Below are positions 2,795-26,401 of a stretch of DNA of 53,403 bases, piece after piece. Both the position numbers and the translations under genes were made by a program. Origin of the DNA: a virus (taxonomy: Duplodnaviria > Caudoviricetes); the IMG/VR virus record IMGVR_UViG_3300025432_000001, positions 1 to 53,403 of that record. One strand, written 5' to 3'. The first letter of the stretch is position 1. Every line of letters begins with the position of its first letter. The notes below the pieces were generated by a model, which had not been told where the DNA came from, made no database searches, and worked only from the letters and a program-made list of their open reading frames with translations.

Positions 2795-3721
2795 TCAGCG
2801 ATTCACGCGCTGGACGAATTCGGCAAAGGCCATGCTCGGCCGCACCACGCCGTCGGCAAGTCCGGCCTCGACGGCGTCCTCGCCGCGGAAGACGCCGGCC
2901 TCCGTGGCGAGCGCAGCGCTCTTCGACAGCCGGCGGCCGCGATATCTGGCGACCGCCGTTGCGAACTGTTCGCGGCCCTCGTCGAGATCCGCCTGCCAGC
3001 GCGCGGCGACATCGGCGCCGAGCGGCTTGAACGGCGAGCCGTCGTCTTTGCGCGCGCCGGACGTCAACACGGTCACGCGCACGCCGTCATTCTCGATCGC
3101 GCGGGAAAAATCGACATGCATGGCGACGACGCCGATGGAGCCGGCATAGCCGTTCTCCGGCAGCACGATCTGCCGCGCCGCGGCGGCGAGCAGATAGCCG
3201 CCGGAGTGCGCGAAATCGGTGAGAATGGCGACCGTCGGCTTGACCGCCGAGAGCTCGGCGATCATGTCCGCGGTATCGAAGGCGCCGGCGGCCTCGCCGC
3301 CGAAGGAATCGACCTCGAAGACGACGCCGCGTACGCGCTCGTCGCGCGCCGCGCGCAGCACTTGCGTCTGGATGCCCTCGTAGGAGGTCTCGCCGGAATT
3401 GCTGTCGAGCCAGGCGCCCTTGTGTACCAGCGTGCCCTCGATCGCGATGACCGCGACCGGACCGAAGCGGGTCAGAATGTTGTCGCCGTAGCCCCTCGCC
3501 TCGATCGTCGTTCCCATCGGATCGCCGAGCCGGCCCATCTTTTCCGAAGGACGCCCGCCTGAGAAGGCGACGTGGTCGATTGCGGCCGGGCCGTCGATGA
3601 CGAGCTGGCCATCAATGAGCCGGCCGCCCATGCCGGCAACGATGGCCACCGCCTTGCCGGCGTCGACCATCAGCGGCGTGTTGAAGATGCGCGCGGCGAT
3701 GCGGGGATGACGCAGGTTCAT
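2795..3721 (-). CDS. Prohead protease, peptidase S49 (SppA/gpC-like)
   Basis: Motifs VDSFGGEA, AHSGGYLLA, GSIGVV and SGARKDDGSP. Confidence 0.92.
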   Translation of the reverse strand: MNLRHPRIAARIFNTPLMVDAGKAVAIVAGMGGRLIDGQLVIDGPAAIDHVAFSGGRPSEKMGRLGDPMGTTIEARGYGDNILTRFGPVAVIAIEGTLVHKGAWLDSNSGETSYEGIQTQVLRAARDERVRGVVFEVDSFGGEAAGAFDTADMIAELSAVKPTVAILTDFAHSGGYLLAAAARQIVLPENGYAGSIGVVAMHVDFSRAIENDGVRVTVLTSGARKDDGSPFKPLGADVAARWQADLDEGREQFATAVARYRGRRLSKSAALATEAGVFRGEDAVEAGLADGVVRPSMAFAEFVQRVNR

Positions 3722-5608: not shown

Positions 5609-5830
5609 TCAAAACACCACGTTGATCGCGCCGCGGCGCCGGTCGCGGCCGTGAAGCTGGTCGCGCAGCAGATCGACGTAAGCGCGCAGCTCGTTGATCT
5701 TCGGCGGGGTAAACTCGGTCGATGACCCGTCGCTCAAGCGCACGCTGACGAACGCCTCGCCGATCTGCAGCCGGTGCAGTGCGTTCTCGGCCTGGCGCAG
5801 GCGCTCGACGATCTCCGGAGTGAACGTCAT
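5609..5830 (-). CDS. Head-tail joining protein gpW-like
   Basis: 73 aa; AENALHRLQIGEAFVSV...ELRAYVDLL...RRGAINVVF; between terL and portal. Confidence 0.85.
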   Translation of the reverse strand: MTFTPEIVERLRQAENALHRLQIGEAFVSVRLSDGSSTEFTPPKINELRAYVDLLRDQLHGRDRRRGAINVVF

Positions 5831-5833
5831 CGC

Positions 5834-7786
5834 TCACAGCCCCTTGTTCAATGACGCGAGCTGCTCGAAATAGCTTTTTTGTTCGCCCGCGTTTGCCGCC
5901 GGCGCCGGCGCCTCCACCGGCAGCTCCTCGGCGCTCACGCCCCGCGCGATCGCGCGCGCAGCCCAATCGTCGGCCTTGAAGCTCGTGAAATAGGCGTGCG
6001 CGCCGGCGATGTTGCCGACGCGGCAGTCGAGGAAGTGATTGTCGCGGTGCGGCCGCTGCTTCCAAGTCTTGCGCTTGCGGCCGCGGAACGCACCGTCCTC
6101 GAGATATTCCGAGGTGATCTGCTTGAAGTAGTTCTCGTCGAGGAAGCGGCCGAAGTGGCAGAAGCCCGGTGGGAACGTGAGGCCGGCGCCGTCGGCGATC
6201 GGCATCAGCGCCGCATAGGTATAGAATTTCGACTTCAGCGGCCAGGTGCCCATCAGGCGGAGCTTGGCGCCGCCTTTGATCTTGCGGCCGCGGTAATCGA
6301 TGTCCTGGTCGGTGGCGATCCCGAGCGGCACTTTCGACCAGCCGTCGTCGCCCTTGGTCGCCCTGGTGCCGGGATGCCGCCGCGTCCACTCGTAGACGAC
6401 GTCGGTGCGATAGCCGGAGTCGATCAGGAACTCGTCGGCGCGGAATTTGCGGCCGTTGGTGTCGGGCCACTCGCGCTCGTAGAGCTTTGTGAGCTCGGCG
6501 AAGGCGCCGGCGTCGACTTCGGTGGTCGAGCCGTCGAGATAATCGGCGAAGATGGTCCAGCTCTGCTGATCGGGTGCGAACGCCACCACCTCGACATAGA
6601 TGCCGCGCATCTGCACGTCGGCCGAGACGTTGACGAGGAGCGCACCGGGCGGAATCACCTCGGGCGGATAATCCTCGCGCCGCTGCATCAGCAGCTCGTA
6701 GTCCGGTGCATCGACGGCGACGTTGAAGGGTAAGCCCAGCGTGAGATTCCAGAAGGTCTTCAGCTTGGCCGGGTCGTTGCCGGCGGCGACGTAATCCGCG
6801 GCGATGCCGTCCCAGGTGGAGAACGGCGCCGAGAGCTCATCGAAGTGATAGGACGGATATTTGCCCGGGCCCGGCGCGGTCGCAACCCATCGGCCGGTGC
6901 GGTAGACGGCGACCTTCTGCGCGCTCTCGATGACGCCGCCGCAGCATCGCGCGACGTAATAGGCCTGGTGCGGGAAGGTCTTCTTGAATTTGAGCCCGTG
7001 CGTCGTCGGATCATAAGGCGCATTCCACTCCAGCACGATGCGCTCTTTGCAGTGCGGGCAGTCGACGTGCCAGCGGCGCTGGTCGCCGGCGGCGTGTTTT
7101 TCCTCGATCTTCGAGGCGTCCTGGATGACCGGCGTCGAGACGTAGGCGCGTTTCCAGGTGCCCGAGGCCTTGAACGATTTTTGCCCGCGGGCGACCAGCG
7201 AGAGCGGATCGCCCTGGCCGTCGAGGTCATCCTCGTATTCGTCGACCTCGTCGCACAGCGCCTTCTTCGCCGTCAGCATGCGCAGGTTTGCCGGCGAGGA
7301 GGCGAGCAGCAGCGACAACGAGCCGCGCGGAAATCTCTTTTCGTAGGTGGTCGAGCCGGCGGCCGAGCGCGACGACTGCGGATAGACCTTGTCGCGGAGC
7401 GGCGCGGTCAGTTCGATCATGCGGCCGAGCTTGATCGAATTGAACTTGCGCAGCGCCACGTCGGTGGGCTGCACCACCACCATGTCGCAAGGGTCGCGGT
7501 CGATCGAATGGCCAATGGCGCATAAGAGCATGGTGGTGAAGGCGGTCTGTCCCGACTTCATCACCGCGATTTCGTTGACCGGCGCGTCCGGCCCGAGCAT
7601 GTCCAGCGGCTCGACAATGTGCGGCGTGCGGCGCAGGTCGATCTTCTCGCCGGCATATTCGCCGTCCGGCAGCACCGCAAATTCGGCCGCCCAGGCCGAT
7701 GGCGCGATCGGCGCCGCCGGCGCGAAGTGGGCGGCGAGCGTGCCGCCGACGATGGCGCGCGCCGAGTGGATGTATTCGAGCCTCAT
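5834..7786 (-). CDS. terL: Terminase large subunit, GpA family
   Basis: 650 aa; VMKSGQTAFT Walker A region, CDEVDEY Walker B, VSTP, CPHC, ADVQ and NHFLDCRV nuclease motifs. Confidence 0.96.
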   Translation of the reverse strand: MRLEYIHSARAIVGGTLAAHFAPAAPIAPSAWAAEFAVLPDGEYAGEKIDLRRTPHIVEPLDMLGPDAPVNEIAVMKSGQTAFTTMLLCAIGHSIDRDPCDMVVVQPTDVALRKFNSIKLGRMIELTAPLRDKVYPQSSRSAAGSTTYEKRFPRGSLSLLLASSPANLRMLTAKKALCDEVDEYEDDLDGQGDPLSLVARGQKSFKASGTWKRAYVSTPVIQDASKIEEKHAAGDQRRWHVDCPHCKERIVLEWNAPYDPTTHGLKFKKTFPHQAYYVARCCGGVIESAQKVAVYRTGRWVATAPGPGKYPSYHFDELSAPFSTWDGIAADYVAAGNDPAKLKTFWNLTLGLPFNVAVDAPDYELLMQRREDYPPEVIPPGALLVNVSADVQMRGIYVEVVAFAPDQQSWTIFADYLDGSTTEVDAGAFAELTKLYEREWPDTNGRKFRADEFLIDSGYRTDVVYEWTRRHPGTRATKGDDGWSKVPLGIATDQDIDYRGRKIKGGAKLRLMGTWPLKSKFYTYAALMPIADGAGLTFPPGFCHFGRFLDENYFKQITSEYLEDGAFRGRKRKTWKQRPHRDNHFLDCRVGNIAGAHAYFTSFKADDWAARAIARGVSAEELPVEAPAPAANAGEQKSYFEQLASLNKGL

Positions 7787-9857: not shown

Positions 9858-10916
9858 TCATAGAAAATCCTTCCCGGCGTGATCCTTGAACAGCCCGGCG
9901 CGACGGTCGTAGGCGCGCAGCGTGTCGACGTCGCGATGCCGCGTGACACGCATCACCGAGAAGAAGTCGGCGCCGCGCTCGAGCGCCGAGGTAACAAACC
10001 CCGCGCGCATCGAATGTCCGGAATAGATTGCATCATCAAATCCGGCGGCCGCCGCGTAATGCTTGACGATGGTCGCCACCGAGCGGTCGGTGAGCCGGCC
10101 ACCGATTCGATTGCCTTTGTCGATTGAGCGGAAAACCGGGCCCTCGGCGATCGCTGCGGCCTCGAGCCATTCCTTCAGCGCCGCGACGGGCTTAAGCTTC
10201 TTGCCGTTCGGTATGGCGATCTGGGCGCCGGCGCCTTCTTGGTCGGTCTTCGAGACGCGCACGTGCACGATGACGCCGCGCTCGACGAATTCGAGATCGG
10301 CGACGTCGAGCGCGACCAGCTCGCTTCGACGCAACGCGGCTGCGAAACCGAGCAACAGCAGCGCCCGATCGCGGAGAGCGCGAAGGTCCGGCGCCGGTTG
10401 ATCAGCTGATGATGATTCCGAAATCAGTGATTTAGGAATACGAGATCGCCGCGGCGCAAGCATCCGCGAAAGGCTCTGCGCCGTCGCCGGCGCCTTGCGC
10501 GTCACGGCGACACCGATCTTGCGGCGGATGCCCGAGAGCACCGCGCGGACCGTCTCAGCATCGCTGGGCGGGACTAAGCCTTTGAGTTTGTGAGCATACG
10601 CTACCGCAGCCAGGCGCCGCCTGATCGTCGAGACTTTTTTCCCGGCGTCGGCAAGCTGCGCGAGGTAAGTAGCGAGAGTCGTCGGCGCCGCTGGCAGCGG
10701 ACATAGGCCAACGCCGTCGCACCATCGGGCGAAATCCGCCCAATCAGCACGATAAGCGCGTCGCGTGGCCTCAGATTTGGAAGCTGCGGCATAATCGCTC
10801 GCCGATTGCAGCGCGTCGGTTAGCGCCGGATTGGTTGATCGCCGAGCCAGTACGTCCGTGGTCTCGGCGACCAGGACCGGCCGATCGGTGACGACCGGCA
10901 GATCCGTAGGGGTCAT
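9858..10916 (-). CDS. Cre-like tyrosine recombinase (SAM-like N-domain plus catalytic domain)
   Basis: TRRAYRADWADF, RDRALLLLGFAAALRRSEL, SKTDQEG, SGHSMRAGFVT and TRHRDVDTLRAY supply the full R-K-H-R-H-Y set. Confidence 0.93.
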   Translation of the reverse strand: MTPTDLPVVTDRPVLVAETTDVLARRSTNPALTDALQSASDYAAASKSEATRRAYRADWADFARWCDGVGLCPLPAAPTTLATYLAQLADAGKKVSTIRRRLAAVAYAHKLKGLVPPSDAETVRAVLSGIRRKIGVAVTRKAPATAQSLSRMLAPRRSRIPKSLISESSSADQPAPDLRALRDRALLLLGFAAALRRSELVALDVADLEFVERGVIVHVRVSKTDQEGAGAQIAIPNGKKLKPVAALKEWLEAAAIAEGPVFRSIDKGNRIGGRLTDRSVATIVKHYAAAAGFDDAIYSGHSMRAGFVTSALERGADFFSVMRVTRHRDVDTLRAYDRRAGLFKDHAGKDFL

Positions 10917-11002
10917 GGGGCCAGCCCCCATTCAGCTTGGGGTTAACCCCAAATTCGAATTGGGTTCACAACAGATCCGTTGTGTCGCCGTAGCCGCGGC
11001 TG

Positions 11003-16009: not shown

Positions 16010-16603
16010 TCATGCGGCGTCTCGCACCGGCGCATTCAGCGTGACCACCGGATCGAACTTGCCGGCTTCGAGTCCCCAGGTGTCCCAGCCCGGCCGTGAT
16101 TGCCTCGAGAACAGCTCGACACGGAAGGCGTCCGGCATGCATCGCTCGCACAATTCGAAAGCCTCATCTGGCTTGCGCGAGTGCTCGCGTGCTATCCCAT
16201 CGAAACTCGACAGGAACGCCTTATGTTTGGGACTCCCGATGCTGCCGAGCAACACGGGCTCGCTCATTGAGCGGATGCGATAGCCGGTGCCCATGCGCGG
16301 CCTGCCGCGCCGCGTCACCTTCCGCCACTGCATCAAGCCGGTCCAGGTGAAGCCCCACTCGCTCATGACCCAAATCGCGTGGGGCACCATCGGCGAGATC
16401 GCCCACAGCCATAGCAGACAGTCGCCGCGGACGAGGTGGCCGACCGGCAGCGCGGCGATGTCGCGCAGCGACATTGCACCGTAGTGTTTGGCGTAGCTCT
16501 TGCTCTCGCCCTTTTCCGAGCGCAGCTCGTAGGGCCACGGCGGGTCGGCCATGATCAGCGTGTAGGAAAACTCCTTCAACGCGCCGAACGGCCAGTTGCT
16601 CAC
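16010..16603 (-). CDS. MT-A70 family adenine methyltransferase
   Basis: IMADPPW, LWLWA, MGTGYRIRSMSE, REHSRKPDE and ELFSRQSRPGWDTWG motifs. Confidence 0.93.
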   Translation of the reverse strand: MSNWPFGALKEFSYTLIMADPPWPYELRSEKGESKSYAKHYGAMSLRDIAALPVGHLVRGDCLLWLWAISPMVPHAIWVMSEWGFTWTGLMQWRKVTRRGRPRMGTGYRIRSMSEPVLLGSIGSPKHKAFLSSFDGIAREHSRKPDEAFELCERCMPDAFRVELFSRQSRPGWDTWGLEAGKFDPVVTLNAPVRDAA

Positions 16604-16863
16604 GCCGCCCTCCGCTGGCGCGCGCGCAGCGCCTCGAAATCGCGCCGCGCAACGGCGTTGAGCCAAAGGGCGAGCTCGTCGACCGACAGCTTGTGCGCGG
16701 CGATCGCTTCGGCTTGCGTGATCACGCCGCCGCGGATTGCCATGCATAGATGCAGTTTGCGGTTCGCCGTCCAGCGCCTGACCGGCGTCAGCACGAGGCG
16801 GCGCATCATCGCGCCGCGCAGCCGCCGGCGCTCCTCGCGCGATCGCGCGGCGGCGGTGCTCAT
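16600..16863 (-). CDS. sciP: SciP/DUF1153-like protein (CtrA-inhibitor homologue)
   Basis: RRWTANRKLHLCMAIRGGVITQAEAIAAHKLSVDELALW...ALRA aligns by eye with the DUF1153 consensus RRWV.RRKA.VV.AV.GG......A...Y.L..EEF..W. Confidence 0.75.
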   Translation of the reverse strand: MSTAAARSREERRRLRGAMMRRLVLTPVRRWTANRKLHLCMAIRGGVITQAEAIAAHKLSVDELALWLNAVARRDFEALRARQRRAA

Positions 16864-17255
16864 GCCACCTCTCTGCGCTTGCGCTGCTGCAGCGCCGTCA
16901 ACGCCGCGACGAGCTTGATGGCGCGGCCGGCGAGTGCCTGTGTGCGCTGCAGCGCCAAATTCAAGATCGCCAGCTTGTGCTCGATCAGCGCGGCATCCTG
17001 GTCGTGCTCCGCCAAGCCCGACTGGTCGAGGATGTCATTGAGCGCGCGGATCGCTTCGGCCCGTTGCGCCCTGATCGTCTCGAGCGGCAGCGTAAGTCCG
17101 ACCGCCCAATCGGGCGCGCTGGTCGCCGCCGCATCAACCAAGTCTGCCCCCCCCGGTTGTGAAGGTTCGCCCGTCTCGCTCTGCGCGAGTGGCGCCGACA
17201 AATCCGGCGGCCGTTCGTCGGCGGGCAGCGCGTAGCGGGCGTTCGGGCCGCTCAT
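16860..17255 (-). CDS. Hypothetical protein
   Basis: 131 aa with ATGA overlaps at both ends. Confidence 0.65.
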
Positions 17256-17497
17256 TCGAGCATCCCCAAGGCGTGCATGTAGGTTTCGAGGACGGCTTCC
17301 TCTTCCCTACGCTCATTGATGTCCTGGCCGCGCAGCCGCACCACCGTCCGCAGCGCCTTGGCGTTGAAGCCGTTGCCCTTGGCCTCGCGGTAGATGTCGG
17401 CAATGTCGTCACCGATCGCCTTCTTCTCCTCCTGCATGCGCTCGATGCGCTCGACGAAGGCTTTCAGGTGATCTTTGGCGAAGGTAGGGGCATCCAT
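17252..17497 (-). CDS. gapR: GapR/DUF2312 nucleoid-associated protein
   Basis: [34 protein letters not shown]...[10 protein letters not shown] is the family consensus. Confidence 0.95.
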
Positions 17498-18264: not shown

Positions 18265-18528
18265 CTACGCGGCGCGCGACTTCGCGGCCTTCCCATGCGC
18301 TGATGCGCTCCCGGGCTTGGCAAAAAAATCGGCGAGACGCAGCGCAATGCCGCGCTCCTTGGCGTGCTCAAGCAGCGGCCGAATATGCCGCTGCGGAATT
18401 TCGCCCCCTGTTCCTCCCGACGCGCGCGACCGCTGCCAGCTGGAGACGCGCGTCCGGTGAAGGTTGAGCAACGCGGCGACCGCCGAAGGACCGCCGAGCT
18501 TCTTGATGATCCTCTGTGCTGGTTCCAT
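18265..18528 (-). CDS. cro: Cro-like HTH repressor
   Basis: IIKKLGGPSAVAALL...VSSWQR...GGTGGEIP; divergent from cI. Confidence 0.85.
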   Translation of the reverse strand: MEPAQRIIKKLGGPSAVAALLNLHRTRVSSWQRSRASGGTGGEIPQRHIRPLLEHAKERGIALRLADFFAKPGSASAHGKAAKSRAA

Positions 18529-18541
18529 GCGGGCCGGCACT

Positions 18542-18616
18542 GTAGCGATTTTCGCTACCAAGGCAAGCCCTCCCGTTGCGATTTACGCCACAGACGGACG
18601 TAGCGCTTAACGCTAC
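18542..18616. promoter_or_regulatory. OR-like operator cluster: three 17-bp GTAGCG-N5-CGCTAC-type sites (18542, 18575, 18600)
   Basis: GTAGCGATTTTCGCTAC, GTTGCGATTTACGCCAC and GTAGCGCTTAACGCTAC. A minus-strand TTGCCT-N16-TACAGT promoter overlaps the first site. Confidence 0.88.
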
Positions 18617-18623
18617 GCTTGCT

Positions 18624-19241
18624 ATGATGTCCGCAAATGCACTTTCCCGGTGGGTGACACAGGCGCTCGCTCATGCCGGAAATATGGGCCAATCCGAGCT
18701 TTCCCGGCGTGTGCATAGGAAACTGCGCCGCGTCGACGAAGACCGCTCCATCATCAATAAGGTGATCAAAGGAAAGCGGGAACTGAGCGGGCTGGAGATG
18801 CTCGCGGTGGAAGAGATTACCGGCTTTCCGGCGCCGACTCGATCGTCAGAGCGAATCACCCTGGTACCTCTCATATCCTGGGTGAGCGCGGGCTCCCTCG
18901 CCGATGCCAGCACCCAAGTGCCCGTCGAGGATGTGCCACTGCTCGCATTCGCCGACCTCGGAAGAGGCAATTTCTTCGCGCTGCGCGTGGAAGGCGATTC
19001 AATGAACCGGGTTTCTCCGGATCAGTCGGTCATCATTGTGAACCGACACGATCGGGAGCTGCATCCCGATCGCTTCTATGTGTTTGCGGTCCGCGGCGAG
19101 ACGACTTACAAACGCTGGCATGCATCGCCGCCTTATCTCGCGCCGTGTTCGACCAACCCGATGCACGAGCCAATCTTTCTCAATCGCAGCAAGGATGCTG
19201 AGGTGATTGGCCGGGTTCGCCGCAGCGTGCTCGATTTGTAG
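18624..19241 (+). CDS. cI: CI-like repressor (HTH plus S24 peptidase)
   Basis: N-terminal HTH, VSAG cleavage site, VEGDSM Ser, TYKR Lys and VIGRV terminus. Confidence 0.93.
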   Translation: MMSANALSRWVTQALAHAGNMGQSELSRRVHRKLRRVDEDRSIINKVIKGKRELSGLEMLAVEEITGFPAPTRSSERITLVPLISWVSAGSLADASTQVPVEDVPLLAFADLGRGNFFALRVEGDSMNRVSPDQSVIIVNRHDRELHPDRFYVFAVRGETTYKRWHASPPYLAPCSTNPMHEPIFLNRSKDAEVIGRVRRSVLDL

Positions 19242-19251
19242 GAGGAGAGAG

Positions 19252-19587
19252 ATGTGGAAAACCGTTGCCACCGTATGCTGCCTGGCGGGTTGCGGCTTTG
19301 CCGTCAGCTGGCCAGCACAATCGCAACCGGTCACCTTTGAAATAATTGGCCGTGTGCCCGGCTGCCACGATGCTGAACTCTTTGACAAGATTACAACTTT
19401 CATGGCCCAGAAGGATTTCGAAGCCGCAAATAAATTGTTTTTTCTGGCCCTGGCGTCTGGCAATTGCCGATGGCTGGAGGCCGGCCAACGCGTGGTCATC
19501 CAAGAAAGTCATTTTTTCGGCCACCATTGCGTTCGCATCCCTGGCGAAACGGAATGCTGGTACACGCTCAATGGCGCCATTAAGTAG
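19252..19587 (+). CDS. Exported Cys-containing protein co-transcribed with cI (superinfection-exclusion candidate)
   Basis: GGAGGAG RBS, signal-peptide-like N-terminus, lower GC. Confidence 0.65.
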   Translation: MWKTVATVCCLAGCGFAVSWPAQSQPVTFEIIGRVPGCHDAELFDKITTFMAQKDFEAANKLFFLALASGNCRWLEAGQRVVIQESHFFGHHCVRIPGETECWYTLNGAIK

Positions 19588-20210: not shown

Positions 20211-20316
20211 CGCAAATCCCTCTCCATCGTCAGCTTTCCAGAGCTCGGGCGATGGAAGCGCGAGTCGGCTGGCTTCGGCCAGCCGGCTCGCGCGCCTTTT
20301 CTGATGGAGCGCGGCC

Positions 20317-20940
20317 ATGAGTGAGCGCATCGACCAAATCGTCGCCACGCTCGCCGCCGCTGAGCCCGATGGCCTCACCAGCGCCGAGGTCGCCGCGCGC
20401 CTCAATATGACGTCCTACAACGCCTCGGGAACGCTATCGAAGCTGGCGGCCTACGGCAAAATCGCCTCTGAGAAGATCGATCGCCAGCGTTATCGCTGGA
20501 AGCTCAAGCCGATGCCACAGCCGCAGCGCGTTGCCCCATTGGCGAAGCCCGGTGAGCTGCTCAAACGCATCGACGGCGTCGCGCCGCAGCCATTGCCGCG
20601 TGAGGCGAGCGATCCGGCCTATCTGGCGATAATCCGCCAATTGCCCTGCCTCAAGTGCGGCATGGATCCATGCGGCGAAGCTGCTCACGTGCGCATGCAA
20701 TCCGGCGCCCACGGCAAGCACAGTGGCATAGGGAGAAAACCAGATGATCGTTGGGCCGCGCCGCTGTGCGCCTGCTGCCATCGCGAGGACCGCGATTCGC
20801 AGCACCGCATCGGCGAACTCGCCTTCTGGCATCGGCTCGGCAGCAATCCGCTGCTGATCTGCGAGCGGCTCTACGCCGCGCGCAGCGACCTGGTGCGCAT
20901 GCGCGCCATCGCACTCACGGCCATTGCGGAGCGCCAGTGA
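20317..20940 (+). CDS. Winged-HTH plus DUF968/HNH-like nuclease
   Basis: AYLAIIRQLPCLKCG...AAHVR...KPDDRWAAPLC..CH...QH..GE..FW motif. Confidence 0.8.
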   Translation: MSERIDQIVATLAAAEPDGLTSAEVAARLNMTSYNASGTLSKLAAYGKIASEKIDRQRYRWKLKPMPQPQRVAPLAKPGELLKRIDGVAPQPLPREASDPAYLAIIRQLPCLKCGMDPCGEAAHVRMQSGAHGKHSGIGRKPDDRWAAPLCACCHREDRDSQHRIGELAFWHRLGSNPLLICERLYAARSDLVRMRAIALTAIAERQ

Positions 20941-21149
20941 TGATCTGGCACACATTCCACTGCCCGCATTGCGGCCTCGTCGTCGATTTTATGGACGAAC
21001 CGCCAAACGAACCACCGTGCGAGGAATGCGGAGCCATCCTCGATCCAGACGAGTTCGAACCCGGCGACGATTTGCTCGACATTCCCGAATTTTTGCAGCG
21101 GTCGTTTGATCTGCCGGCATTTCTGCCGAAATGGAGCCGTGAACCGTGA
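20940..21149 (+). CDS. Zn-ribbon protein with FtsZ C-terminal-peptide-like motifs
   Basis: CPHC...CEEC followed by DDLLDIPEFLQR and FDLPAFL. Confidence 0.7.
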   Translation: MIWHTFHCPHCGLVVDFMDEPPNEPPCEECGAILDPDEFEPGDDLLDIPEFLQRSFDLPAFLPKWSREP

Positions 21150-21294
21150 GTCCGCTAAAGAGCTTTGGGATTGCCGTGCCGCCTCGTCATGGCGCCATTA
21201 CGCCACCGCACGGCAGATCAGCTTCGCCGCCGCGGCGCGTGAGGTCATCGAGCGCGGTTTTTCAGCAAAGTCCAACGAGGGAGTAGCATCATGA
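21139..21294 (+). CDS. Small hypothetical protein
   Basis: GGAG RBS, GTG start, ATGA overlap with the next gene. Confidence 0.5.
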   Translation: MNRESAKELWDCRAASSWRHYATARQISFAAAAREVIERGFSAKSNEGVAS

Positions 21295-21707
21295 GCGACA
21301 GATCACCGGGTGCCGTCGATCGCGACGTCGGCCTGCGCGTTCACCAAGCGCGGCTGATGCGCGAGATCAGCCAGACCGACCTCGGCGCCGCGCTCGGCGT
21401 CAGTTTCCAGCAGGTGCAGAAGTACGAGAAGGGCACCAACCGCATCGGCTGTTCGCAGCTCGCCCGCATCGCAGCGACGCTAGATCGTCCGGTGGCGTGG
21501 TTTTTTGCCGGCACGCCGGCCGGGCGCGCCGCCAATTTTGGCGCGTCGCCCGATCCCTGTCAGCTGCTCGGTTGCACGCGCGACGGGCTTCGGCTCGCGA
21601 TCGCCTTCAACGCCATCGCCGATCGCACGACGCGCGGCGCGATCGTCGCCGTTGCTGAAACCACGGCGCACGCCTTGGCGCCGGCGGCACGCAGAAGGGC
21701 GCCTTAG
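21291..21707 (+). CDS. XRE-family HTH transcriptional regulator
   Basis: SQTDLGAALGVSFQQVQKYEKGTNRIG is the alphaproteobacterial XRE consensus. Confidence 0.93.
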   Translation: MSDRSPGAVDRDVGLRVHQARLMREISQTDLGAALGVSFQQVQKYEKGTNRIGCSQLARIAATLDRPVAWFFAGTPAGRAANFGASPDPCQLLGCTRDGLRLAIAFNAIADRTTRGAIVAVAETTAHALAPAARRRAP

Positions 21708-22067: not shown

Positions 22068-22385
22068 ATGACTATCATCTTCGGCGGCCGCCCCAACGGA
22101 TTGCGCATGTGCCGCGGCTGCGGCTGCGACGACAACCCCGCCTGCGTCGATGCGCGCGGCAATGCCTGCGCCTGGGTGCTACTCGATTTTACCATCGACG
22201 TCGCTGGGCCCGCGCCTCACTGCGACGGAAGCTATTGGCGGCCGCAGCTCGGGCAGCTCTCCGTTGAGCAGCTTCCGACCGGCGTCTGCAGCGCCTGCGC
22301 CGATCGCATCGGTTGGGATATGCGCGAGCTTGCCACGATGGGCATCGGCGATCTCGATCTCGGCGACGCAGAGGAAGCAGCATGA
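22068..22385 (+). CDS. Cys-rich hypothetical protein
   Basis: CRGCGCDDNPAC...CAWV...CSAC, a Zn-binding pattern common in phages. Confidence 0.75.
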   Translation: MTIIFGGRPNGLRMCRGCGCDDNPACVDARGNACAWVLLDFTIDVAGPAPHCDGSYWRPQLGQLSVEQLPTGVCSACADRIGWDMRELATMGIGDLDLGDAEEAA

Positions 22386-22549
22386 AGACCATCGGCTTTA
22401 ATCGCATGCGCTATCTGTCGTTTCGGTCGCAAAGTGACTTGGCGTTGGCCTGGGCGCGCGACATTGACGCCGGCGAAGCCGCCAAGCGTCCACTGCTGGA
22501 ACGTCTGTTTATCGTGATCCAATATTTTCAGCGGAAGGAAGCGGCGTGA
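22382..22549 (+). CDS. Small hypothetical protein
   Basis: Coupled overlaps on both sides. Confidence 0.55.
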   Translation: MKTIGFNRMRYLSFRSQSDLALAWARDIDAGEAAKRPLLERLFIVIQYFQRKEAA

Positions 22550-24905: not shown

Positions 24906-25179
24906 GCGCGAGGCCGGCGACGTGCCGCCGATCATGGCCGCCTACCATATGGGCTGCGCCTCGCTGGCGGAGTTCGAGCAGAAGCTCCCTGCCCTGCTCG
25001 GCCGCGGCTTCCCGGCGCCCGACGAGACCACCGGCAATTTCGATCTCGACGCGATCAAGGCCTGGCGCCGCTCGCGTCATCCACAGCTTTTCCCTTCCGA
25101 TCGCTTGCTCGTCGGCCCGACTGCGCGCGACGCTAGAGACGTCGTGCCCGGCCGGCTGGCGAGGATTCGCGGTGGGTGA
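24895..25179 (+). CDS. xis: Putative excisionase / recombination directionality factor
   Basis: LLGRGFPAPDETTGNFDLDAIKAW winged-helix motif directly upstream of the integrase. Confidence 0.75.
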   Translation: MRHRREAGDVPPIMAAYHMGCASLAEFEQKLPALLGRGFPAPDETTGNFDLDAIKAWRRSRHPQLFPSDRLLVGPTARDARDVVPGRLARIRGG

Positions 25180-26401
25180 CGTGAAAATCCGGTACTACGT
25201 CACGCGGCAGCGGCCGGGAGCCCGCAAGTGGGGTTATTGGGCGCCTTGCCTCGCCCGCGGCGGCAAGCCGACGCTGATGGCCAAGCTCGGCTTCAAGATG
25301 GTCGACTGCGGCGAAGACGGCCCATACGCCTGGGCGATCGCTCATCAATGGAACGAGCGATGGGATATTGCCCGGGCGAAGCTCGCAAAGGGCGAGACGC
25401 CGGAAGTACCGGCAAAAATGGAGAGGATATTCCCGGCGGGCAGCCTCGGCGAGGCGTTCGCCCGCTTCCGCGGCACAAAGACCTGGCTGGAGAAAAAGCC
25501 TCGCACCCGCGAGGACTGGCTGCGCGGCTTCAAGCACATCGACCCGATCTTCGGCGACGTCGATCCGAAAACCGTCTCGCTCGAGGATCTCGACTCTTGG
25601 TATGCGGCGCTGCTCGCCGCCGTCGGCATTCGCGAGGCACACCGCGCTATGAAGATCTGGCGCGCGCTATGGCGCATCGCCGGCACGCTGAAGACAGGGC
25701 GCGGCGGAAAGTATTGCGAGCGCGACCAAGATCCATCGCTCGGCATCCGTCGCAAGACGCCGAAGCCACGCAATGCCATCTGGTTCGAGGGTGAGGCCGT
25801 GCGCCTGGTCAAGCGCGCCTGGCGCATGCGCTTTCGCGGCCTCGCCGCCGCGCTCGCGGTCGCCTGGGACTCGATGCTGTCGCCGGTCGACGTGCGCACG
25901 CTGACGCCGGCGCAATTGCGGCGCGACGCGCGTGGGCCGCTGTTTACGCTCGATCGCACTAAGACCGGTGCCCCGGCGATCGCCACGCTCTCCAAGCGCA
26001 CGGCGCGGCTGCTGGAGGGCTATCTCGCCACGCTGCCGACACTGCATCCGGATGCGCCGATTTTCCGCACCCGCGGCCACGCCGCGGGCCCAGGGCGGCC
26101 GCGGCCGCCGGTCCCTTACACCGCTGACACGCTCGGCGACGATTTCCGTGCCGTGCGCGAAGCGGAGTTTCCGGGCGACACGCGCCAGCTGATGGATTTC
26201 CGCCGCTCCGGTTCCGTCGAGGCCGAGGCCGGCGAGGCCGACGAGCGCGGGCTCGCCAAGAAAATGGGCAACACCATCGATAGGAACCGCGCGCTGCGGA
26301 ACACCTATTTGCCGCCGAACGCGACGGTGGTGCGGCTCACCGACGAAGCCCGCGTGCGCGGCCGGCGCCGCTTGCGCGAGAGCGGGAATGATCGAAAATG
26401 A
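25172..26401 (+). CDS. int: Phage integrase (divergent tyrosine recombinase)
   Basis: 409 aa; arm-binding N-terminus, core domain (TREDW), and RTKTG, DFRRSG, KMGNT and TYLP motifs; next to attP. Confidence 0.85.
   Translation: MGDVKIRYYVTRQRPGARKWGYWAPCLARGGKPTLMAKLGFKMVDCGEDGPYAWAIAHQWNERWDIARAKLAKGETPEVPAKMERIFPAGSLGEAFARFRGTKTWLEKKPRTREDWLRGFKHIDPIFGDVDPKTVSLEDLDSWYAALLAAVGIREAHRAMKIWRALWRIAGTLKTGRGGKYCERDQDPSLGIRRKTPKPRNAIWFEGEAVRLVKRAWRMRFRGLAAALAVAWDSMLSPVDVRTLTPAQLRRDARGPLFTLDRTKTGAPAIATLSKRTARLLEGYLATLPTLHPDAPIFRTRGHAAGPGRPRPPVPYTADTLGDDFRAVREAEFPGDTRQLMDFRRSGSVEAEAGEADERGLAKKMGNTIDRNRALRNTYLPPNATVVRLTDEARVRGRRRLRESGNDRK

Follow-up and report, generated by a model that had tools for sequence, protein, structure and literature searches.

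What would a temperate phage gain from a protein of 69 amino acids that joins a zinc ribbon to a tail resembling the C-terminal peptide of the bacterial division protein FtsZ? The question is raised by the gene at 20940..21149 (+, stop codon included) of the IMG/VR record IMGVR_UViG_3300025432_000001, which was analysed over its full length of 53,403 bp (the window) and is a complete virus record with direct terminal repeats, estimated by CheckV to be 100% complete. An earlier note on this DNA had described the product, here called P0001, as a carrier of two FtsZ tail mimics that would titrate the anchors of FtsZ and block division. We conclude that P0001 is real and belongs to the accessory proteins of a temperate phage; the answer that we favour, as a tentative one, is that it acts as a decoy and competes for the pocket in which host division proteins, with FtsA as the first candidate, hold the FtsZ tail.

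Direct translation of 20940..21149 runs without an internal stop and confirms the protein that had been described, in the order MIWHTFHCPHCG...CEECG, an acidic and proline-containing stretch, DDLLDIPEFLQR and then FDLPAFLPK, with its two CxxC pairs ahead of the tail. Compared by BLASTP with the 383-aa FtsZ of E. coli K-12, P0001 gave its top alignment at FtsZ residues 368-383, the extreme C-terminus (10/18 identical, E 0.001), and its second motif aligned with residues 369-380 (E 0.031). A profile of the tail module, a stretch of 21 residues, built from seven proteins had its sole match in FtsZ at residues 370-382 (E 3.4e-4, hhalign probability 38%). The single control protein, E. coli FtsA, gave E 0.33 with the module profile and a best BLASTP value of E 0.55. 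When the window was scanned in all six frames for [DE][IL]PxF[LIM], two matches were found in total, both of them inside P0001. On the evidence of these alignments the resemblance to the FtsZ C-terminal peptide is real, is specific to that stretch of FtsZ and stands above the one control.

The likeness extends to the residues on which the FtsZ tail depends. The E. coli tail sequence had been given correctly in the earlier note as DYLDIPAFLRKQAD, which agrees with the K-12 ftsZ gene and with the published peptide (PMC4117426); ZipA, FtsA, MinC, ZapD, ClpX and SlmA are listed among its binders, and I374 and L378 are described as critical for the binding of ZipA, FtsA and MinC (PMC4117426). The conserved C-terminal stretch of FtsZ, known as the CTC, CCTP or 'grappling hook', comprises eight residues, of which D, P and F are reported to be fully conserved (PMC9939409). 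Both motifs of P0001 have the D-x-P-x-F spacing (D47-I-P49-E-F51 and D57-L-P59-A-F61), and I48/L52 and L58/L62 are the hydrophobic residues that BLASTP aligns with I374/L378. An acidic residue at the x position, as in motif 1, has precedent in natural tails, being found in LDIPDFLRKRTPPRN of two cyanobacteria (PMC7714070).

These motifs are borne by a small and simply built protein. Residues 1-36 (20940..21047, +) make up the zinc-ribbon part, in which two CxxC pairs (C8xxC11 and C27xxC30) lie around a beta hairpin in the C4 zinc-ribbon pattern, and the four cysteines are invariant in 8/8 aligned sequences. The AlphaFold2 (AF2) model, made on a small alignment, places strands at residues 3-7 and 14-18 with predicted local distance difference test (pLDDT) values of 69-76. 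Pfam zinc-ribbon families match below their gathering scores (the best, Zn_Ribbon_TF, at 19.9 bits against a cut-off of 29), so no specific zinc-ribbon family was assigned. Residues 37-42 (21048..21065, +) form an acidic and proline-containing linker that differs between lineages in length and sequence, with pLDDT below 50 at residues 40-45. Motif 1, the FtsZ-tail-like DDLLDIPEFLQR, occupies residues 43-54 (21066..21101, +), and motif 2, FDLPAFLPK, residues 56-64 (21105..21131, +); on its sequence, motif 2 may be either a degenerate repeat of motif 1 or the latter part of a bipartite module. The tail is disordered in the model, at a pLDDT of about 50, with a sole helix of four residues at 50-53, and FtsZ tails are likewise described as disordered until bound (PMC9939409). 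Searches with the tail returned nothing from Pfam, PHROGs, NCBIfam, PADLOC, PDB sequences or Atlas. With the whole protein, PDB sequences gave no match at E < 0.4, NCBIfam and PADLOC nothing except one sub-threshold zinc-site match, and Atlas only unnamed small proteins and weak structural rows.

The start of the gene required some care, as the program-made list of open reading frames (ORFs) gives P0001 only as the 3' portion of a longer, TTG-started ORF at 20751..21149. The ATG at 20940 shares one base with the TGA of the upstream 207-aa gene (TGATG, 20938..20942), a Shine-Dalgarno-like tetramer, GGAG, can be read at 20928..20931 (+), 8 nt before this ATG, and the equivalent methionine is the start in three homologues of P0001. 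The overlap suggests that translation of P0001 is coupled to that of the upstream gene. A sceptical reader might take 20940..21149 for a chance or decaying ORF rather than a functional gene. The G+C content at third codon positions (GC3) is 0.64, below the 0.78-0.81 of the flanking genes and equal to that of the antisense frame, there is no RNA run among the 24 runs that contain the region's DNA, and the sequence of one relative, P0004, looks like a P0003-like gene with a frameshift. Set against this, three lineages at 63-79% identity have kept the ORF intact, with cysteines and motifs invariant, the GGAG is well spaced from a start that overlaps the upstream stop, and a protein identical to P0001 is present on 23 contigs from four sources. 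We therefore regard a non-functional ORF as the most improbable of the explanations considered here.

The relatives of P0001 are few. A word-indexed protein search returned one near-identical cluster (P0002, P0008 and P0009, 97-99% identical), and an exhaustive search of representative proteins gave five proteins at E <= 0.001. P0003 and P0010 are 63-65% identical to P0001, P0003 having 73 aa and keeping both motifs, while a search for longer proteins added P0011 (130 aa), which is 78-79% identical and also keeps both. Alignment of five sequences shows the cysteines and 14 positions of the tail to be invariant and the linker to vary in length and sequence; the invariant residues are L46, D47, I48, P49, E50, F51, L52 and R54 in motif 1 and D57, L58, P59, F61, L62 and P63 in motif 2. 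The conservation of the motifs among homologues, to which the earlier note had pointed as a check, is thus borne out in a small set, with both motifs invariant in three tail-bearing lineages at 63-79% identity. As these are only three independent lineages, the conservation signal is suggestive and not strong.

Some members of the search results stand apart. P0009, a metagenome variant on one 734-nt contig, has threonine in place of the motif 1 proline (DITEFL), which may be an error or a natural loss-of-motif allele. P0011 lies on a 992-nt contig and is a fusion or run-on ORF, the zinc-ribbon protein being in frame with a homologue of the 55-aa ORF at about 22382..22549 (+) of the window; gene order around the cassette varies between phages. 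P0005 and P0006 were rejected as relatives since they are long repeat proteins lacking the motif, as was L004, the internal zinc ribbon of a terminase. A tblastn search with P0001 against cultured phages gave 37 records, all at E >= 2 and in T4-type baseplate hub genes, and these were set aside as chance-level. No relative of P0001 or of the upstream gene was found in two scans of genome contigs.

What is new here is that the tail module, as judged by profile alignment, recurs at the N-terminus of an unrelated phage family. A scan of viral contigs led to the contig L001, where a 205-aa ORF (5785..6402) contains EDDLDIPEFLQRDYDP. This ORF belongs to a family with 12 homologues at E <= 0.001 among 132 candidates, mostly of 131 aa, and a further member lies at 2983..3378 of the viral contig L006. 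Alignment of the two family profiles by hhalign matched P0001 residues 42-62 to the N-terminus of the 131-aa family over 21 columns (probability 92%, E 5.9e-7), and the residues L, I, P, F, L, R and D are invariant across both. The 131-aa family begins with an invariant LL[DE]IPxFLQRDYDP...WLE, followed by EPWWMPDLQ, a long basic helix and a C-terminal winged helix. AF2 models it with a low-confidence N-terminus, a long helix at residues 42-85 (a coiled coil) and the winged helix, for which Foldseek returned only generic winged-helix proteins at E >= 0.03, and the family has no named match in Pfam, PHROGs or NCBIfam. Its members have a pI of 9.6 and lie on contigs of 42-47% G+C; unlike P0001, they carry the module at the N-terminus of a basic body made of coiled coil and winged helix. 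An alignment-driven motif scan of viral contigs gave 143 stretches, of which one passed tblastn, the L006 member of the 131-aa family; by rough arithmetic 143 is of the order expected by chance, and we claim no enrichment. Directly after the 131-aa gene on L006, at 3375..3614 (+), lies a gene for a 79-aa acidic protein with CxxCxGxG-type cysteine pairs.

As the same module sits on two unrelated bodies, the conserved unit is the 21-residue module itself. Its second half in the 131-aa family, DYDPLKWL, aligns with motif 2 of P0001 and lacks the D-x-P-x-F spacing, so that what is conserved may be a single, bipartite module rather than a pair of FtsZ tails. This tempers the description of P0001 as carrying tandem FtsZ mimics: both of its motifs do align with the FtsZ tail, but the term is too strong for a module whose second half is not FtsZ-like in the second family. 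The shared module offers two options: it may mimic the FtsZ tail and carry an extra element, or it may be a peptide that docks onto some other target.

The second of these options deserves to be taken seriously. The module may dock onto another conserved protein of host or phage, which P0001 would inhibit or recruit, and its likeness to FtsZ would then be coincidental or partial. It is the whole module, and not just the FtsZ-like core, that is common to the 131-aa family. The Q-R that follows F-L is shared by both families, as is the x-[FY]-D element after it, which is absent from FtsZ, and with this variant and a conserved extension beyond FtsZ the module could have a different target. The architecture that it heads in the second family, a coiled coil with a winged helix, would be typical of DNA-recruiting adaptors, and the hhalign probability against FtsZ is low, as given above. 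Yet the module matched no alternative known motif in the six resources searched with the tail, and its sole specific likeness to any named protein is to the FtsZ tail. On balance we judge docking onto a different target to be rather unlikely, though a real contender.

The module could also be an address and not a blockade, bringing P0001, or DNA bound by the winged helix, to FtsA, to the division site or to the membrane, where the ribbon would act or recruit an activity and P0001 would be an adaptor. Its presence on a zinc ribbon in one family and on a coiled coil with a winged helix in the other would fit such a role, as would the occurrence of the ribbon with a different tail in P0007, from which it follows that body and tail are separable. 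But the ribbon is minimal, at about 36 residues, with no recognisable functional family or indicated partner, and the affinities of single tails are weak, so that we think an adaptor of this kind improbable. A broader proposal, speculative and more doubtful than docking onto another target, is that the module is portable and that phages with widely differing hosts have joined it, as a docking device, to different bodies: with the ribbon it would titrate tail binders and stop division, and with the coiled-coil winged-helix body it would link FtsA or the divisome to DNA or to a regulator. If this were true, mimicking the FtsZ tail would be a general way for phages to connect with the division machinery of their hosts, distinct from the action of the phage division inhibitors known so far.

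The decoy that we tentatively favour would work as follows. P0001 has the build of a carrier of a short linear motif, in which a folded zinc ribbon and a variable acidic linker present a conserved, disordered module of 21 residues. The first half of the module reproduces the D-I-P-x-F-L consensus of the FtsZ conserved C-terminal peptide and, if expressed, would occupy the host-protein pocket into which the FtsZ tail normally fits. Of the candidate partners FtsA is the most widely conserved, and MinC or another tail binder may also be the target. Filaments of FtsZ would in consequence be deprived of their regulation or of their hold on the membrane, so that the cell would divide late or not at all during phage development. 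FtsZ fragments covering residues 354-383 are reported to inhibit E. coli in vivo in fragment screens (PMC10769210), and the affinities given for FtsZ-tail peptides and their partners are weak, at 20-81 uM (PMC4117426); because free fragments inhibit and single tails bind weakly, a decoy, and a multivalent one, is a reasonable idea, and the second motif might add to the binding of the first. A complex prediction of P0001 residues 36-69 with a stand-in FtsA (Swiss-Prot FTSA_RHIME), run without controls, gave ipSAE values of 0.00 and 0.00, a result that tells in neither direction on binding. Work by Du and colleagues from 2015 is said to have found that multivalent FtsZ tails gain avidity.

Besides the Q-R variant, several observations weigh against a decoy of FtsZ partners. 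The basic residue that follows F-L in FtsZ (R379 in E. coli) is replaced by Q53 and P63 in the two motifs, in which a basic residue sits one place later (R54 and K64), a comparison made with two natural tails, that of E. coli and the cyanobacterial one. The tail used throughout is that of E. coli K-12 FtsZ, which may not be the host's own; literature searches for alphaproteobacterial FtsZ tails returned no sequence. The family is tiny, with its three independent tail-bearing lineages, and P0007 (65 aa), a distant zinc-ribbon relative, has an unrelated tail without the motif. The two motifs are only 10 residues apart, which makes it doubtful that one molecule could engage two partner molecules. 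The analogy with lambda kil, on which the earlier note had leaned for the position of the gene, is loose and extends to the general region only. On the lambda map kil lies leftward of cI on the cI strand, between cIII and gam. P0001 does lie downstream of a CI/LexA-like repressor (18576..19241, +; Peptidase_S24, Pfam E 1.6e-16) and on its strand, in a block that corresponds to the one with kil in lambda, which counts for the decoy, but in the neighbours that were examined Pfam and PHROGs gave no match to N, cIII, gam, bet or exo. The sole Pfam-supported integrase, a tyrosine recombinase (Phage_integrase, E 4.5e-15), lies elsewhere, at 9858..10931 (-) amid a minus-strand block. BLASTP of P0001 against Kil, the latter without its first residue, gave no alignment at E <= 100.

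The strong acidity of P0001, with a net charge of -13 and a pI of 4.05, would suit other roles as well. P0001 might instead be some other type of acidic mimic or inhibitor, such as an anti-restriction protein or nucleic-acid mimic in which the motifs are incidental hydrophobic patches; this would be in keeping with such a charge within 69 residues and with a low-GC, swappable cassette in an accessory region. The charge nevertheless varies in the family (net -8 in P0003 and -4 in P0007) while the hydrophobic positions of the motifs are invariant, and no PADLOC or anti-defence family matched among those searched. We consider this explanation very unlikely, though a little less so than that of a non-functional ORF.

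The cassette itself was seen when contigs from four runs were compared over 20300..21320. In a peat contig from run X13, which belongs to a closely related phage, positions 20934..21199 are replaced by 208 other letters between matching flanks, with the joint at 20933/21200. A soil contig from run X23 spans 20300..21320 and has 24 of its 26 differences in 20341..20772, with at most 2 elsewhere; this clustering within the first two thirds of the upstream gene, with hardly any change downstream, suggests a recombination boundary inside that gene. The low GC3 and the replacement of 20934..21199 in the X13 contig indicate that the P0001 gene is an exchangeable accessory element, as are many phage genes for host takeover.

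The upstream gene (20317..20940, +) encodes 207 aa, with an N-terminal winged-helix-like part and a C-terminal Cys/His part like that of HNH and DUF968 proteins (DUF968 E 1.1e-4 and MarR_2 E 5.4e-4, both under the Pfam cut-offs; PHROG HNH endonuclease phrog_131, E 7.1e-9). Ahead of it, by 24 nt, a 16-bp G+C-rich hairpin followed by GCCTTTTCTG (20258..20293, +) looks like a terminator, although the evidence is weak because the scan gave 8 such sites against 7.0 expected in shuffled sequences. This hairpin lies between the repressor and the P0001 gene, together with a 135-aa ORF and a lipoprotein-like ORF of 111 aa (19252..19587, +) that directly follows the repressor and has a strong AGGAGG just upstream. 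The N-terminus of the latter resembles a lipoprotein signal (…CCLAGC…), and searches of Pfam, PHROGs, NCBIfam and PADLOC matched the ORF to nothing. The ORF is a candidate moron that the lysogen would express. Divergent from the repressor is a cro-like small helix-turn-helix (HTH) gene at 18265..18561 (-), with Pfam matches below cut-off to YdaS_toxin (E 0.0013) and P22_Cro (E 0.0068). Downstream of P0001 by 142 nt, 21291..21707 (+) encodes an HTH_3 protein whose sub-threshold likeness, through the HTH only, is to DicA, antitoxin-type repressors and the Wolbachia phage Wmk family. The plus-strand block closes with a 409-aa ORF (25172..26401, +), for which a reading as an integrase was considered and rejected, as it has no match in Pfam, PHROGs or PDB sequences.

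The window has a G+C content of 64.6%, carries no tRNA genes and has no match to the FtsZ family anywhere in the record. Its head genes include a lambda-type large terminase and a portal, and its tail genes, encoding sheath and baseplate proteins, are those of a contractile tail. Megablast of positions 1-25000 against cultured phages gave no match, and the closest terminases among phages are those of Aurantimonas phage AmM-1 (43%), a Microcystis phage (38.5%) and Rhizobium phage PPF1 (33%). A GapR-like gene found by Pfam search lies at 17252..17497 (-), near an MT-A70 methyltransferase at 16010..16747 (-; E 7.7e-27). The region's DNA was present in 24 runs from 24 studies, of peat, of wetland and, in one case, of a soil metagenome, four of which may be the sample of the record itself. 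The GapR-like gene and the closest terminases point to an alphaproteobacterium as the probable host, living in peat or wetland soil.

To our knowledge, the phage division inhibitors described so far act on FtsZ itself, on MinC or on late divisome proteins. A full-text literature search found no description of a phage-encoded FtsZ-tail mimic, subscription journals being partly outside its scope. A natural FtsZ-tail decoy, if P0001 is one, would work on a different principle, starving the ring of its anchors and regulators through mimicry of a short motif. The FtsZ-tail pocket is discussed in reviews as an antibacterial target, and P0001 would supply a natural competitor peptide for it, tuned by evolution, as well as a handle on which tail binders matter in alphaproteobacteria. 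The decoy mechanism, should it hold, would be an addition among phage division inhibitors, and would mean more if the module proved to be a general docking device on several phage proteins.

How P0001 would relate to known systems can be seen by comparison with three of them. Like P0001, lambda Kil (47 aa) is a small protein with an accessory role in a temperate phage, its gene lying on the repressor's strand and downstream of the repressor, and its outcome, a block to division, is the one proposed for P0001. The two differ in build and target. Kil is modelled as a helix-turn-helix that acts on FtsZ in a ZipA-dependent manner (PMC11762379; PMC3961180), and it and its HK629 relative are described as acting on FtsZ assembly. 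The AF2 model of P0001, with two short strands and a four-residue helix, lacks such a core, and a zinc ribbon with a disordered tail would act on the partners of FtsZ instead. The FtsZ C-terminal peptide shares with P0001 the D-I-P-x-F-L core in register and a disordered acidic linker before it. It belongs to a tubulin-like GTPase and finishes in a short variable end, whereas the motif in P0001 is on a 69-aa zinc-ribbon protein, in which motif 1 is not the end of the chain and is followed by a second element. A further parallel to the proposed action is that of the FtsZ 354-383 fragments, which, as suggested for P0001, would place a free FtsZ-tail-like peptide in the cell to titrate tail binders (PMC10769210); but those are laboratory constructs of FtsZ itself, whereas P0001 occurs naturally in a phage and bears a diverged form of the motif on a zinc ribbon that carries it.

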